64,000 nt of DNA from Candidatus Cloacimonadota bacterium (GCA_963667145.1 OY762943.1:49576-113575); one strand, 5' to 3'; shown: positions 20,999-30,944, counted from the first letter of the stretch. Numbers and translations: made by a program. The notes: generated from the sequence alone by a model not told the origin.

Positions 20999-21074
20999 GG
21001 GGCATTAGCTCAGTTGGTAGAGCACTACACTGGCAGTGTAGGGGTCAGCGGTTCAAGTCCGCTATGCTCCACCA
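20999..21074 (+). tRNA. tRNA-Ala(GGC)
   Basis: GGGGCAT/ATGCTCC acceptor stem with G3:U70, CTACA-CTGGCAG-TGTAG anticodon arm, GTTCAAG, CCA. Confidence 0.96.
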
Positions 21075-21083
21075 TTTTTTTAT

Positions 21084-21118
21084 AAAGCGTTTATCTACAT
21101 AAGATGAACGCTTTTTTT
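21084..21118 (+). terminator. intrinsic terminator after tRNA-Ala
   Basis: AAAGCGTTTATCT-acata-AGATGAACGCTTTTTTT. Confidence 0.75.
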
Positions 21119-22199: not shown

Positions 22200-23462
22200 A
22201 TGATTAAAATTATTGGAAGCAGGGAGTTACCCGCTAATTTTTTTGCTCCTTTGGATTATAGCGGAGAGGATGCAGTTTTAGAGATTTTGGACGATGTCAA
22301 ATCCTATGGCGATAGAGCTATCAGGAAATATTCCCAGAAATTTGACGGAGTTGATTTAGATAAGTTTTTAATATCAAGTTCGGAGATAAGCAACGCTTAT
22401 TCGTTTTTGTCGAGCGAGCAGATAGAGGCGATTGAGTATTCTAAAAATAATTTGGAGAAATTTGCCAAGGCTCAGCTTGAGCAGTCCAAAAATTTTGAAC
22501 TGGAGACGGATAAAGGAGTTTGGTGTGGGCAGAGAGTTGTCCCTATTGAGAATGTGTGTGTGTACGCTCCTGGTGGCAATTTTCCTTTGCCATCTTCCGT
22601 GTTGATGGGCGTTGTTCCTGCCAAGGTGGCTGGTTGCAAGCGAATTGTGGTTTCTTCGCCTCCGTGTTTCCGAGGCTCTGTGCATCCTGCTGTGTTGGTT
22701 GCTGCGGACATTGCAGGGGCTGACGAGGTTTACGCTGTGGGAGGTGTGCAGGCGATAGGTGGATTTGCTTTTGGTTCGGAGAGTTTGCCTCGGGTCGATT
22801 TGATAGTTGGTCCTGGGAATAAATATGTTACGTTAGCCAAAAAAGCTGTGTATGGTGTAGTCGGCATCGACTTCATTGCAGGTCCATCGGAAGTGATGAT
22901 TATTGCTGACAAGGTTGCCAATCCTGAGTATATAGCGGCGGATATGTTGGCACAGGCTGAGCACGATGTCAACGCCAGTGCCTATTTGCTGACGGATGAC
23001 GATTATCTTGCGAAGAGTGTGAGTGTGGAGTTGGAAAAGCAGTTGAACAATTTGACAACACGAGATATAGCCAACCAATCTATTGAGAACAACAGTTATA
23101 TCGTTGTTTGCGAAGATTTGCAAGAGGCTGTGTCTATTTCCAATCGCAAAGCTCCAGAGCATTTGGAGTTGCAGACTGTTTGCAATAACGTCTTGTTGCC
23201 TCAGCTGACCAATTATGGATCGCTGTTCATCGGAGAGCAGTCTGTGGAGGCTTTGGGCGATTATTCTGCGGGAGTAAATCACACTTTGCCGACAGGTTTG
23301 TCTGCACGTTACACAGCCGGTTTGTCGGTGAACAATTTCATCAAAAAACAAACGACTTTGAGAGTGGAGGGAGCGAAAAAGGTTACGGAAGTTGCGGGAG
23401 TTTTTGCCAAGATGGAAGGCTTGGATGCTCATAGCAAATCTGCATTGAAGAGACTAGAATAG
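22200..23462 (+). CDS. hisD: histidinol dehydrogenase
   Basis: [45 protein letters not shown]. Confidence 0.95.
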
Positions 23463-23500
23463 TTTTGAATATAGAAGATTAACGAAAAAGGAGGAGTGAT

Positions 23501-25204
23501 ATGACTACTTTAATAGTAATTATTAGTCTGTTGCTTTACGTGTTGCTGTACAAGTCGTACGGCGGTAAACTGACAAAGATGGTGCAAGCGAACGATGATA
23601 ACGAAACTCCAGCTGTTCGTTTGCGGGACGATGTGGATTATGTGCCTGCCAGACCAACTGTGCTCTTTGGACACCATTTTGCTTCCATAGCGGGAGCTGC
23701 CCCGATTATTGGCCCAGTACTTGCTTTAGCTTGGGGTTGGGTACCTGCAATTTTATGGATTTGGTTTGGGAATATTCTCATTGGAGCTGTGCATGATTAT
23801 CTATCGGTGATGGCTTCTGTGCGTTATGATGGGAAGTCTGTCCAGTTTGTGGCTGCTGACGTGATCGGAGTAAGAACCAGTAAGATTTTTTATTGGTTGG
23901 TTCTTTTCATGATTATTTTGGTGATTTCCGCTTTCGGAGCTGTGGTTGGCGGAATGTATGTGGGGCAGCCTGCTGTGGCTTCTTCATATGTGCTCAAATT
24001 GGTTGCTGCTCTCATTTTGGGATATTTGATGTATAGCGTCAAAATGGATTTTCGCCTTGCAACTGCGATTGGTATTGTGCTTCTAATTTTTGCCATTATC
24101 GGTGGAACTTGGATGCCAATCAAACTTGGTTGGGGAACTTGGATGATAATTATTGGCGTGTATATTGTGGTGGCGTCTTCCGTGCCAGTGAATATCTTGC
24201 TGCAACCTCGAGATTATCTCAATTCTTGGCTTCTGTATTTTGGATTGGCGATAGGTCTTATCGCTGCTGTATTCAGTTTCCACGGATTTACCGCTCCTGC
24301 TTTTACTTCGTTTGCTCCTATTATTTCTGGTGGTAAGCCAACTCCATTTTGGCCAGCTATTGTGTTGATAATTGCTTGTGGTTCTTTGTCTGGATTTCAT
24401 GCATTGGTTGGCTCGGGAACTACTTCTAAGCAAGTGAGCAAAGAAAGCGATGTCAAGATTATCGGCTATGGTTCTATGCTCACTGAAGGATTCTTGTCCA
24501 CAATAGTGCTGATTTCGATTGCCGGATTCTCTTTTGGGATTTTGCAAGATGCAGGTACAGGGCTTACTCTGGATAATTGGGGAATGAAATACACAGGGGC
24601 TATGATGAGCAATTTTCCCAAAGCGGCTATGTTCGTTGAGTCTTATGCGAAAATGGTTGGAAGCACTTTCCTCAGCTTCATCCCTGTGAAATTCGTAAAA
24701 GTGATTGCAGGAATGTGGGTGGCTTCTTTCGCCATGACCACGCTTGATACTACTAACCGTTTGGGAAGATACGCTATTTGCGAAGTTTGTGCACCGCTCA
24801 AAGGCAAATCTGACAATTTGCATGCTTTCCTCACCAACAAATGGGTTGCTTCTACGATTCCTGCTTTGGTAGGTATGCTTTTGGCTTATACCAAGAGTTT
24901 CACGATTTTGTGGCCTTCGTTCAGCACGGCAAATCAGCTTTTGGCTTCTATCGTTATGTTTACCAGTGCAGCTTGGTTGTCCAAAAGGCTTAAAGTTAAG
25001 AATTTAAATATGGTTTTGATACCTGCTTATCTTCTGTGGATTACAGTGACCGCCGCAATTTTGTGGTTCAGTTTCGTGGTACTCCCTGGAACTATTGCCA
25101 CTAAACCTGTGACAGGTTACACGGTGATGTGTATCGAAATCACAATGATAATCCTTAACTTTATCTTCATCTACGATTTCCTCAAAACCAGGAAAGAAGC
25201 GTAA
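23501..25204 (+). CDS. cstA: carbon starvation protein A (CstA/BtsT-family transporter)
   Basis: TPAVRLRDDVDYVP, FGHHFASIAGAAPIIGP, QPRDYLN, IACGSLSGFHAL, LWPSFSTANQLLA. Confidence 0.93.
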   Translation: MTTLIVIISLLLYVLLYKSYGGKLTKMVQANDDNETPAVRLRDDVDYVPARPTVLFGHHFASIAGAAPIIGPVLALAWGWVPAILWIWFGNILIGAVHDYLSVMASVRYDGKSVQFVAADVIGVRTSKIFYWLVLFMIILVISAFGAVVGGMYVGQPAVASSYVLKLVAALILGYLMYSVKMDFRLATAIGIVLLIFAIIGGTWMPIKLGWGTWMIIIGVYIVVASSVPVNILLQPRDYLNSWLLYFGLAIGLIAAVFSFHGFTAPAFTSFAPIISGGKPTPFWPAIVLIIACGSLSGFHALVGSGTTSKQVSKESDVKIIGYGSMLTEGFLSTIVLISIAGFSFGILQDAGTGLTLDNWGMKYTGAMMSNFPKAAMFVESYAKMVGSTFLSFIPVKFVKVIAGMWVASFAMTTLDTTNRLGRYAICEVCAPLKGKSDNLHAFLTNKWVASTIPALVGMLLAYTKSFTILWPSFSTANQLLASIVMFTSAAWLSKRLKVKNLNMVLIPAYLLWITVTAAILWFSFVVLPGTIATKPVTGYTVMCIEITMIILNFIFIYDFLKTRKEA

Positions 25205-25216
25205 TTTTAAAAATTA

Positions 25217-25495
25217 ATGTCATTTTTGAAGCTTGATTTTTGGAAAAGGGCATGGGAGACCTTTGAGGCTATTCATCGAGGTAGAGCAGTGGAATCACTG
25301 CAAAATGAGTTGAATGAATTGGAAAACGTGTTTTGTCTGCTATCGATGAGTTGCTTGGTGGGGTTTCCTATGCCCATGTTTTATCATAGTTTGGAGTACT
25401 TACCCGATTTGCAAAAAGAGTTGGAAATGTTTTATCTAAAAGCGGAGCGTTCGGACGATATGTTGGCGACTATCGCTGCTATGAGTGAATTGTGA
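25217..25495 (+). CDS. small CstA-associated protein (resembles cory-CC-star-type proteins)
   Basis: 92 aa, ELENVFCLL..LVGFPMP...SLEYLP; lies between cstA and an ArsA-like ATPase, and its stop overlaps the next start. Confidence 0.75.
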   Translation: MSFLKLDFWKRAWETFEAIHRGRAVESLQNELNELENVFCLLSMSCLVGFPMPMFYHSLEYLPDLQKELEMFYLKAERSDDMLATIAAMSEL

Positions 25496-26385
25496 GACTG
25501 GCGTTCTTTTTGGGAAAAGGCGGAGTAGGGAAATCCACATGTTCTTCGGCTTTGGCTTATCAGTTGGCTACAAAAGGAGAAAAAACTTTATTAGCCTCTT
25601 TTGACCCTGCACATAATTTGGGAGACATTTTCGGTTTGAGATTGTCTGGCAAGATAAAGGGATTTTGTCCTCATCTGGATTTGTTGGAAATAGATTTGCA
25701 GAAAGCGACCGAGAATTACATAGCCAAAACCAAAGAACTGATTAAGCAGGTTTATTCGTACAACACGGCTTATAATGCGGATGGATATTTCAATCTTTTT
25801 CGCTATTTGCCCGGCATTCAAGAATATGCGTCCATCACGGCTTTGCTTGATTTGGTGCAGGAGCAGAAGGGGAATTACGACAACATAATTTTTGATACTC
25901 CTCCCACAGGTCTTACTTTGCGGGTGTTAGCGTTGCCGATGATTTCGATAAAGTGGCTAATGCAACTGAAGAGTTTGCGGGAGAAGATTTTGGACAAAAG
26001 GCATACGATAGCATCTATCAATGACCGCGAAAACAAATTACGTTGTCAGCAAGCGATGAAGACCGACAAAGTGTTGTCCAAAATTTGTCGAATGCTCAGA
26101 TGCTATCAAGAGTTTGACGACTTGTTGAAAAGCAATGAAGCTAAGTGTGGAATTGTTGTGAACCCCGACTTTTTGTCGTTACGCGAATCAGTACGAATAA
26201 AAGATGGATTGAGAGAGATTGGAATTAAGAGCAAGTTTTTGGTAATCAACAAGGTTACAGATGAAGTTCGTGATGCCGTGAAGGAAGCAAAAAAATCTTT
26301 GAACGATGATAACACAATTGATATTGAGATTTGCTGTAATTCATATTCGTACAAATTGAGCGACGATTTAACCAAAATTTTTTGA
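25492..26385 (+). CDS. ArsA/Get3 (TRC40)-family ATPase, single NBD
   Basis: GKGGVGKST, SFDPAHNLGD, LPGIQEY, FDTPPTG.TLR.L.LP, LVINKV. Confidence 0.9.
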   Translation: MRLAFFLGKGGVGKSTCSSALAYQLATKGEKTLLASFDPAHNLGDIFGLRLSGKIKGFCPHLDLLEIDLQKATENYIAKTKELIKQVYSYNTAYNADGYFNLFRYLPGIQEYASITALLDLVQEQKGNYDNIIFDTPPTGLTLRVLALPMISIKWLMQLKSLREKILDKRHTIASINDRENKLRCQQAMKTDKVLSKICRMLRCYQEFDDLLKSNEAKCGIVVNPDFLSLRESVRIKDGLREIGIKSKFLVINKVTDEVRDAVKEAKKSLNDDNTIDIEICCNSYSYKLSDDLTKIF

Positions 26386-26402
26386 GGAGAAAAGAGATTA
26401 TT

Positions 26403-27023
26403 ATGGAGCAAAACCCTTATTTTTATTTGTTCACAGCTTTGACGATAGCGTTGGCTTTCAGCTATTTTGTGGGTGCAAGGCGAAACAAAAAAATTTCCAG
26501 AGTTATTTTTAGAAATTTAGAAGATATTCTCAAGCCGAGCAAAAAAACTTACACCAACATTGGTGGTTTGATTGGCTATAATTTCGATTACGCCAAGATG
26601 AAGGCGAAGAAGATTTCCCGTGTAAATGGTGTTTTGACTTTGATTCCCAGACAGTCGCCTCTATATTTGCCGATTGCCAAACTTCTTGGAAGAAAAGACA
26701 AGCTGTACATAACCATTTTTGTAACGAATGTGGGCTTGAAACATACGTGGCACATCGTACACAACAAATGCAAAGAGCGTATTGACGTGGCAAATTTGCA
26801 GTGTGATAAGCTCAATTCAGGTGGTCAATCTGTGAATTTATTTCATCAAGAAGGCGACGAATGTGTAGCTATCAAAAAATTCATTGCAAATAACAGTTTG
26901 AAGCATTTGCGTCATTTGGCATATCATCCCGAGGACAAGTGCTTTTCTATGTTGTTGAAGCCAGGGAATATTTCCGAGGAGTTTGAGAAAATTTACGGCT
27001 TCATCAACTCGCTGATTAGTTAG
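26403..27023 (+). CDS. single-TM hypothetical protein with CCDC47/DUF1682-like motifs
   Basis: N-terminal TM followed by YFVGARRNKKI, LTLIPRQ and KDKLYITIFV. The ORF is well supported; the family call was made by eye. Confidence 0.65.
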   Translation: MEQNPYFYLFTALTIALAFSYFVGARRNKKISRVIFRNLEDILKPSKKTYTNIGGLIGYNFDYAKMKAKKISRVNGVLTLIPRQSPLYLPIAKLLGRKDKLYITIFVTNVGLKHTWHIVHNKCKERIDVANLQCDKLNSGGQSVNLFHQEGDECVAIKKFIANNSLKHLRHLAYHPEDKCFSMLLKPGNISEEFEKIYGFINSLIS

Positions 27024-30590: not shown

Positions 30591-30944
30591 ATGACTAAAG
30601 TATCAAAAAATTTACATTTGAGGTTGTTCGAGCTTTTTGGTAATCCGAATAAGAAATCGAAAAATAGTTACAGGATAATGAGTAGCGGTGAGCGGGAATT
30701 TTTTACTGGCTCAGCTCAGTCCTACTTGTTGGATTTGCTTTACAGCTCTTTTATCGATTCTGGCACTTTCGAGACTATCATGGAAGTTTCAGGTGGATTT
30801 TACCGATTTTACAAAGAGAAAATAGAGGTTGAAAATCTGAAAAAGATTGTTGAGTCTGTGGTTTTTTCGGGCGAAGAGAGTAGCACGGATGCGAATATCA
30901 GTCTTATGGACAAAATTTATCCCGAAGAAGACGAGGTTAATTAG
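30591..30944 (+). CDS. Smg/DUF494-like protein
   Basis: RIMSSGEREFF...YLL.L...FE.IME pattern, directly upstream of topA (the usual position). Confidence 0.6.
   Translation: MTKVSKNLHLRLFELFGNPNKKSKNSYRIMSSGEREFFTGSAQSYLLDLLYSSFIDSGTFETIMEVSGGFYRFYKEKIEVENLKKIVESVVFSGEESSTDANISLMDKIYPEEDEVN

Follow-up and report, generated by a model that had tools for sequence, protein, structure and literature searches.

What does a single-domain ATPase of the ArsA/Get3 family do in an operon with a CstA-family permease? The question is raised by four adjacent genes in a stretch of 64,000 nucleotides from a Candidatus Cloacimonadota bacterium (GCA_963667145.1 OY762943.1:49576-113575). This stretch is hereafter called the window, and positions are counted from its first letter. 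The open reading frames (ORFs) of the 64-kb window place the four genes on the + strand, co-oriented, between positions 23501 and 27023, in the order cstA, cstX, ATPase gene and a cstY-type gene (gene 4). They are a bacterial four-gene case of a cluster described in 2010 by computer analysis. The most important point of the present work is the CCDC47-like fold predicted for the protein encoded by gene 4. Also new are the wide spread of this gene in bacteria and archaea, the grounds for doubting that CstX is a membrane protein, and the mixture of Get3 and non-Get3 features in the ATPase. We tentatively read the three accessory genes as an ATP-driven module acting on CstA.

The operon and its conservation

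The permease gene, cstA (23501-25204), is preceded by a Shine-Dalgarno sequence recognised by direct reading (GGAGGAG, 23490-23496, + strand). It encodes a protein of 567 amino acids (aa) that matches PF02554 (E 1.3e-122) and, on a rough tally, has about 12 hydrophobic segments; no solved structure for CstA was found by sequence search. Peptide uptake has been proposed as a role of the CstA family. A gap of 12 nt separates the TAA of cstA from the start of cstX (25217-25495, + strand), which encodes a 92-aa helical protein of the DUF7990 family. The ATPase gene (25492-26385, + strand) encodes 297 aa of the single-domain ArsA/Get3 family (PF02374, E 2e-51), and its GTG start lies within a GTGA shared with the cstX stop. 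A second Shine-Dalgarno sequence, GAGGAG (26384-26389, + strand), overlaps the TGA stop of the ATPase gene 13 nt ahead of the ATG of gene 4 (26403-27023, + strand). The protein of gene 4 has a predicted N-terminal transmembrane (TM) helix followed by a CCDC47-like globular domain. We rejected a longer reading of this gene as a TTG ORF from 26382: its homologues begin MEQ(N/D/S)P, and the start was therefore set at the ATG in 26403, which gives 206 aa. A first-pass annotation, made from the sequence alone, had pointed out the four genes, the 12-nt gap, the GTGA overlap and the ribosome-binding site over the ATPase stop, and all of them are present.

We scanned genomes with one conserved peptide of gene 4, taken from an 11-sequence alignment. 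This gave 146 loci, of which 80 were kept; the sample is biased and archaea are not listed in it. The 80 loci belong to Cloacimonadota, Syntrophales/Syntrophaceae, Desulfohalobiaceae, Spirochaetota and related metagenome-assembled genomes (MAGs). When the four window proteins were searched against them by tblastn, the order cstA-cstX-ATPase-gene 4 was colinear in all loci with sufficient contig, bar the exceptions given below. Among the 75 loci that were scored, the junction between cstX and the ATPase gene measures -4, -1 or 0 nt in nearly all, and the gap between the ATPase gene and gene 4 is mostly 2-16 nt. The four-gene arrangement is far beyond chance, and the colinearity across the 80 loci bears out the earlier view that the four genes are one conserved functional unit. 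The closest loci lie on complete Cloacimonadota MAG chromosomes of ~1.56-1.59 Mb with the same flanks (hisD upstream; a phosphoglucomutase-family gene, glyS and topA downstream). CstA is 85-89% identical in the Cloacimonadota relatives, and 53-67% identical in the loci of Syntrophales, Desulfohalobiaceae and Spirochaetota.

The module with gene 4 is also carried by four archaeal loci, and module loci occur in KSB3 and in several archaeal lineages. Their neighbours include genes for an archaeal threonyl-tRNA synthetase editing domain and a methylene-H4MPT dehydrogenase (L082), an archaeal pilin (L087) and RLI/ABCE1 (L089). One member of the gene 4 family is labelled Crenarchaeota/Thermoprotei by its source, and the family is also found in Thermoproteota loci at the same position. 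The CstX family likewise holds its position beside the ATPase gene in bacterial and archaeal loci. With the ATPase as bait in metagenomes, cstX was found in 62 of the 65 and cstA in 39 of the 40 loci with enough upstream sequence, while the most distant metagenome ATPases had none of the partners. Wherever it is present, gene 4 stands 3' of the ATPase gene. The first-pass annotation had staked its reading on a neighbourhood survey in which gene 4 would be kept with the other three; it is kept in the 80 genome loci and in 47 of the 60 metagenome loci with enough downstream sequence.

Much of this cluster had been described before. Castillo & Saier (Int J Microbiol 2010:187373; PMC2963123) listed 26 prokaryotes with cstA clustered to a single-domain ArsA homologue, of which 24 had a CstX of ~90 aa. 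In five archaea there was also a CstY of ~210 aa with a single transmembrane segment (TMS); the published hosts of CstY are Thermococcus, Pyrococcus, Staphylothermus and Hyperthermus. They reported that CstA, CstX, the ArsA homologue and CstY co-evolve and that ars genes are absent. In their proposal, CstA draws its energy from the ATPase and CstX couples the two (PMC2963123). One carrier reported there is Thermococcus kodakarensis, a genetically tractable species. Their clusters (CstA family, TC 2.A.114) have the gene set, sizes and order of the operon studied here, with an ATPase of ~300-330 aa. The novelty of the operon had accordingly been overstated in the first-pass annotation, since both the cluster and the idea of a small protein coupling the ATPase to CstA were published. 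We liken our CstX to theirs by size and position, and the product of gene 4 to their CstY by size, topology and position, in neither case by sequence. Elsewhere in the literature searched, we found no other paper using CstX or CstY in this sense, and no experimental work. Whereas CstY was then found only in five archaea, we find a CstY-type gene in additional archaea and across many lineages of bacteria, and its relationship to CCDC47 was not recognised at the time.

Gene 4 and the CCDC47 fold

A profile search with gene 4 in 1.84 billion proteins gave 202 representatives (at 50% identity) with E ≤ 0.001, nearly all of 195-240 aa. The AlphaFold2 (AF2) model, built from an 86-sequence alignment, has a predicted local distance difference test score (pLDDT) of 96.4 and a predicted template modelling score (pTM) of 0.90. 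It consists of a helix at residues 5-43 and then a beta-rich domain with three helices. The membrane anchor is the hydrophobic N-terminal part of the first helix, with RRNKK after it, and the positive-inside rule together with the AF2 model suggests an N-out, C-in topology. The first-pass annotation had taken the fourth protein for a possible membrane receptor, and the predicted combination of a membrane anchor with a cytoplasmic domain fits a docking or receptor role.

Foldseek returned only two matches in the PDB at E ≤ 0.001 for this model, 7tm3_4 (E 1.2e-7, TM-score 0.62) and 9i78_4 (E 1.8e-6, TM-score 0.68), the TM-scores being normalised to the query. A third match, 6w6l_7, had a probability of 0.99, and all others were at noise level. 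A query of the PDB sequence set identified the three chains as CCDC47 of rabbit, Chaetomium thermophilum and human, respectively. Pfam profiles matched the same family: PF07946 (CCDC47) was found at E ≤ 1 in 41 of the 86 members of the gene 4 family (best E 6.2e-5), and the runner-up Pfam family in 9 of the 86. These matches are all below the gathering threshold of 27.7 bits, the protein of the window scoring 18.7 bits.

The similarity to the sequence of human CCDC47 taken singly is weak and local. Sequence-profile searches of the PDB, with the gene 4 alignments or with the single protein, did not find CCDC47 at E ≤ 10, and hhalign of the family against human CCDC47 aligned only 36 juxtamembrane columns (probability 6%). 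The hidden Markov model (HMM) of the family scored 9.0 bits against human CCDC47, a score reached by none of 3000 full shuffles and by 3 of 3000 shuffles in which the TM segment was kept; once the TM and juxtamembrane region is removed, no signal is left. Human CCDC47 has G156/N160 and R227/D243 at identical spacing where the gene 4 family has its near-invariant G24/N28 and invariant R83/D99, i.e., a juxtamembrane G-x-x-x-N and an R...D pair with the same 16-residue spacing. This correspondence was noticed post hoc and is only suggestive. Two independent lines, the fold and the profile matches, of which none is above a curated threshold, nevertheless make it likely that gene 4 is a true homologue of CCDC47.

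In both proteins, one TM helix leads into a globular, beta-rich domain on the cytosolic side, and their orientation in the membrane is the same. Gene 4 has only ~4 residues ahead of its N-terminal helix and its chain stops at the last helix of the globular domain. It thus lacks the acidic lumenal N-terminal region of CCDC47 and the C-terminal coiled-coil/latch helices, which are the parts contacting the ribosome and Sec61. In terms of the model, gene 4 would equal that part of CCDC47 which is made up of the transmembrane domain (TMD) and the globular domain. This unit binds two partners in the SND3 translocon of fungi, Asterix by the TMD and SND3 by the cytosolic domain (PMC12572126). The partners of CCDC47 are Asterix and Sec61, whereas the neighbours of gene 4 encode a CstA permease and a Get3-like ATPase. 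CCDC47 is a membrane-protein assembly factor, a subunit of the PAT complex within the multipass translocon of the ER. The components of the PAT complex have been stated to be absent from prokaryotes (PMC9630114), and the complex to have no obvious bacterial homologues (PMC13261788). The CCDC47-like fold predicted for gene 4 contradicts this current statement. A prokaryotic relative of the CCDC47 unit that is genetically tied to a Get3-family ATPase and to a multipass permease would give a handle on the biochemistry and the origin of this domain.

The ATPase and CstX

The ATPase passes the cutoff of TIGR00345 (GET3_arsA_TRC40; 172 bits, cutoff 135) and is far below that of the ArsA equivalog TIGR04291 (102 bits, cutoff 650). 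It is a single domain of 297 aa, with no tandem A1-A2. In 45 members of its clade, the P-loop GKGGVGK(S/T), the switch I S-x-DPAH, the switch II D-T-P-P-T-G-L-T-L-R and the base-contact pair N253 K254 are invariant. Because these catalytic motifs are invariant, the enzyme is probably active.

Residues 4-258 align continuously with residues 29-279 of the Get3 of M. jannaschii (PDB 3ug6; 95 bits), and the alignment runs through the long helical region that follows switch II. With E. coli ArsA, only residues 4-150 and 227-259 of the ATPase align. The region after switch II has 71-73 residues, against 67 in M. jannaschii Get3, which is the length of a TRC40 insert; the Get3-like helical subdomain that had been read after DTPPTG is therefore confirmed in length and alignment. 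The resemblance to Get3/TRC40 (3ug6, 3zq6) extends to the single-domain deviant Walker-A, the DPAH of switch I and the DTxPTG of switch II. The differences lie in the missing CxxC zinc motif, in a switch II reading DTPPTGLT without the His of DTAPTGHT, and in the composition of the subdomain. This subdomain is poor in methionine (family median of 1, against 8 in M. jannaschii Get3), and the mean hydropathy of the insert is -1.04, against -0.71 in M. jannaschii Get3. The Met content is no absolute requirement for a Get3 client groove (PMC6593721). Neither a CxxC in the ATPase sequence nor a conserved Cys pair in the family was found, and some archaeal Get3 proteins that bind tail-anchored proteins also lack CxxC (PMC6593721). 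The conserved residues of the subdomain are aromatic and charged (W155, R163, R170, D192 and Y205). Because it is Met-poor and carries these specific conserved residues, the subdomain looks like a site for one dedicated partner, not like a general groove for TM segments.

CstX has close relatives that carry a precomputed match to PF25952 (DUF7990). The 75 aligned sequences have a common core, ELENIFALLLLGSFVG-x-P-x-PP-x-FLAVELLPFME...RA-x-DA-x-DMLAEM. With an average of ~1.7, the best 19-residue Kyte-Doolittle window is a borderline case, and the P-x-P-P turn breaks it up; the hydrophobic stretch is in the middle of the protein and strongly conserved. Castillo & Saier called CstX a single-TMS protein. 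Judging from its core, which is proline-broken and highly conserved, we consider a plain TM helix unlikely: CstX is probably not a transmembrane protein, and the conservation of the core would fit a protein-protein interface better than a membrane anchor. Nor does CstX have three TM segments.

The small protein had also been likened to the cory-CC-star type of other prokaryotes. This likeness holds as a distant kinship: the profile NF041419 matched seven of eight diverse CstX, archaeal ones included (E 4e-6 to 6e-5, 23-27 bits); for the CstX of the window, E was 2e-5. All of these scores are below the equivalog cutoff of 80 bits, and by this measure CstX would only be a distant relative of cory-CC-star. 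The Cys-Cys end that we take as the defining trait of the Corynebacterium family, from its name and from the precedent of DUF466, is absent from the CstX of the window (which ends ...AAMSEL) and from the aligned bacterial members. CstX had no match to Pfam DUF466. As in the E. coli pairs CstA-YbdD and BtsT-YjiX, a small protein is encoded immediately 3' of a CstA-family gene. Yet YbdD and YjiX belong to DUF466 and end in Cys-Cys, whereas CstX ends ...MSEL or ...GID and is paired with an ATPase.

Membership of the ATPase in the ArsA family invites the explanation that the ATPase and an ArsD-like CstX pass a metalloid, a metal or a small ligand to CstA for export. In ars operons, arsD is directly upstream of arsA, and cstX is likewise directly 5' of the ATPase gene; there are also occasional iron-related inserts in the module (rubrerythrin-like in Desulfohalobiaceae, FeS_assembly_P in KSB3). 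Cysteines argue against it. None is invariant in the 45 clade members, and position 217 alone has Cys in more than 30% of them; the Cys113 region of E. coli ArsA (GACTTEI) aligns to ...RYLPGIQ... of the ATPase; and no conserved cysteine was found in CstX either. The ArsA of arsenic pumps is a tandem two-domain protein with metalloid-binding cysteines, encoded in ars operons under ArsR, and the ATPase of the window has none of these traits. The gene context points the same way. The polytopic membrane ORFs of the window are only LptF, LptG, a xanthine/uracil permease, BrkB/YihY and CstA, in agreement with the earlier remark that it holds no arsB or acr3, while the small genes arsR, arsC and arsD were not exhaustively scanned there. 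No ars genes were found in the context of the related loci examined, and arsR, arsB, acr3 and arsC are missing from the published clusters as well (PMC2963123). The characterised CstA proteins are pyruvate importers (PMC5847655). We therefore rejected the identity with an arsenic-pump ArsA, in agreement with the first-pass annotation, on the TIGR04291 score, the absent Cys triad, the single domain and the lack of an ars context, and we regard a hand-off of ligands to CstA as very improbable.

The likeness to Get3 and to CCDC47 leads to a different explanation, that the system is dedicated to biogenesis. In this GET/PAT counterpart, the ATPase and CstX would be a chaperone and CstY its receptor, and together they would help CstA (or CstX) to insert, fold or oligomerise. 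The predicted fold of CstY with its 41 sub-threshold matches to PF07946, the end-to-end alignment of the ATPase with archaeal Get3, its TRC40-length region and the strongly conserved hydrophobic segment of CstX all speak for it. So do the archaeal accessory genes, which can be an operon of their own apart from cstA, and the bacterial single-domain Get3 homologues with an insert, to which no function has been assigned (PMC6593721). However, the operon encodes no tail-anchored protein and no receptor of the Get1/Get2 type, and its ATPase is linked to a transporter gene. The delivery of tail anchors in the style of Get3, which the first-pass annotation had considered, finds no visible client here: the hydrophobic stretch of CstX is mid-protein and CstY is anchored at its N-terminus. 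CstY also lacks the latch helices by which CCDC47 contacts the ribosome and Sec61, the ATPase subdomain is Met-poor with conserved charged and aromatic positions, and CstA homologues elsewhere manage without such a system. Finally, tight translational coupling and one-to-one co-evolution suit subunits better than catalytic chaperones. We thus find a dedicated biogenesis system unlikely, although it is the chief rival of the explanation given below. Its fuller version, in which CstY is a true prokaryotic homologue of CCDC47 and forms with the Get3-type ATPase and CstX an ancient insertion or assembly machine dedicated to CstA, is to us similarly doubtful. If it were correct, the PAT scaffold and its partnership with a Get3-like ATPase would both predate eukaryotes and be present in Bacteria and Archaea, against the view that prokaryotes have no PAT components.

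A putative accessory module of CstA

The explanation we favour, with some hesitation and without holding it for established, is that an ATP-driven accessory module, docked via CstY and CstX, energises or gates CstA. The four genes would encode one membrane transport assembly with CstA as the permease. CstY would be its single-pass (N-out, C-in) scaffold or docking site, with the CCDC47-fold domain in the cytoplasm. CstX would be a small helical adaptor, cytoplasmic or peripheral, kept in a fixed ratio with the ATPase by translational coupling; its role may be like that of YbdD, which is needed for the activity of CstA in E. coli. The ATPase would dimerise in an ATP-dependent manner and dock beside CstA, on CstY and CstX, and its cycle of ATP binding and hydrolysis might energise or gate transport, as ArsA makes ArsB an ATP-driven pump. 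Our analysis shows the gene content, its conservation, the coupling, the folds and the intact catalytic motifs; which proteins touch, in which direction transport is affected and what is transported we infer.

We favour this accessory module because of the fixed operon, the translational coupling and the published co-evolution of its proteins (PMC2963123), and because the homologous CCDC47 unit behaves as a scaffold. The invariant catalytic motifs of the ATPase, its subdomain suited to one dedicated partner and the lack of ars genes in the context also speak for it. Two precedents add to this. In ArsAB, an ATPase of the same family, with a small partner gene (arsD) directly 5' of its own, joins a secondary carrier, whose energetics it alters. 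In E. coli, the deletion of ybdD lowers the CstA-dependent uptake of pyruvate about as much as the deletion of cstA (PMC5847655), and therefore CstA-family carriers use small cytoplasmic partners encoded alongside them. If CstA is energised or gated in this way, it would be the second secondary carrier, after ArsAB, to have been taken over by an ArsA-family ATPase. Bacteria and archaea have a great number of single-domain Get3/ArsA homologues, whose functions are still called unclear (PMC6593721); this operon supplies them with a fixed set of partners.

Several observations weigh against a module that powers or gates CstA. E. coli CstA and BtsT are H+ symporters that work without an ATPase, and ATP coupling is therefore not intrinsic to the CstA family. 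For two of the three accessory proteins, the only relatives that have been characterised are Get3 and CCDC47, which serve the biogenesis of membrane proteins and not transport. The AF2 model of CstX, made from six close sequences, has three helices with a pLDDT of 63 and a pTM of 0.28, and its fold is not confident. CstY is not universally required: six metagenome loci lack it (L137, L140, L148, L149, L153 and L156), as do most of the bacteria in the 2010 survey (PMC2963123). These six loci have cstA-cstX-ATPase or cstX-ATPase, cstA being beyond contig range in L137 and L140, and no conserved gene downstream that would substitute for cstY was found in them. Where these loci have a cstA, it is a remoter relative (E about 1e-90 to 1e-118), a hint that they form a separate clade with the triplet only. 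The permease gene itself can be detached from the others. It is divergent from cstX-ATPase-cstY in three archaeal loci (L082, L084 and L089) and in three metagenome loci (L138, L142 and L154), and the three accessory genes can therefore be an operon of their own. A chromosome-scale Syntrophales locus (L070:4797-6582) has cstX-ATPase-cstY, and tblastn found no cstA within 6 kb on either side.

This last locus, which keeps the accessory genes without a nearby cstA, would suit a role in signalling. CstA would then be a transceptor, and the ATPase, CstX and CstY would relay the nutrient or ATP/ADP status or sequester CstA, in the manner of GlnK-AmtB or MinD, without powering transport. ATPases with a deviant Walker A typically switch by ATP-dependent dimerisation, and a small partner sets off their hydrolysis, as in MinD/MinE, ParA/ParB and Get3/Get1-2. 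Moreover, the module is found in energy-limited anaerobes, syntrophs and Cloacimonadota among them, and with these we count the Thermococcales reported as hosts in 2010 (PMC2963123). But the neighbourhoods examined have no conserved output domain or regulator, and a direct action on the transporter is the simpler explanation for the near-obligate linkage to cstA. A pure signalling role is, in our view, improbable.

The module also varies in its gene content. In four loci of the Desulfohalobiaceae type, a rubrerythrin/ferritin-like gene lies between cstA and cstX (L018:2430-2966, L019:4098-4589, L022:4255-4746 and L057:3407-3898). It encodes 163 aa (a 178-aa ORF in L018), and the copy of L019, the only one scanned, matches PF02915 (E 1.6e-19). 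A second iron-related gene inside the module, for a 90-aa FeS_assembly_P protein (DUF59-type, PF01883), lies between the ATPase gene and cstY in Candidatus Moduliflexus (KSB3; L086:7717-7989). One locus has two full-length tandem copies of cstA 5' of cstX (L054:803-4689), and in L035 and L081 cstA is split in two ORFs by a frameshift or an assembly error.

Upstream of the operon in the window, the stop codon of hisD (23460-23462) is followed after 38 nt by the ATG of cstA. Predictions of promoters and terminators were uninformative, their counts being at the shuffle level. Behind a tRNA gene (20999-21071) there is a strong hairpin that resembles a terminator, with a 13-bp stem and a T-run (region 20999-21114). 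No terminator-like site was seen from this hairpin to the end of cstY, nor from cstY to the next gene. Because such sites were not found in between, the genes from cstA to cstY may be co-transcribed with hisD and with an upstream gene of the beta-eliminating-lyase family. The GC skew is positive (0.03 to 0.30) in nearly all 2-kb bins of the window (1-64000), except at ~48-56 kb, and the long ORFs are mostly on the + strand, both of which are consistent with a leading-strand segment. Further downstream, an ORF of 117 aa (30591-30944) stands directly 5' of topA and overlaps its start. It matches DUF494 (E 3.4e-5), and its position is kept in a Cloacimonadota relative (L001).

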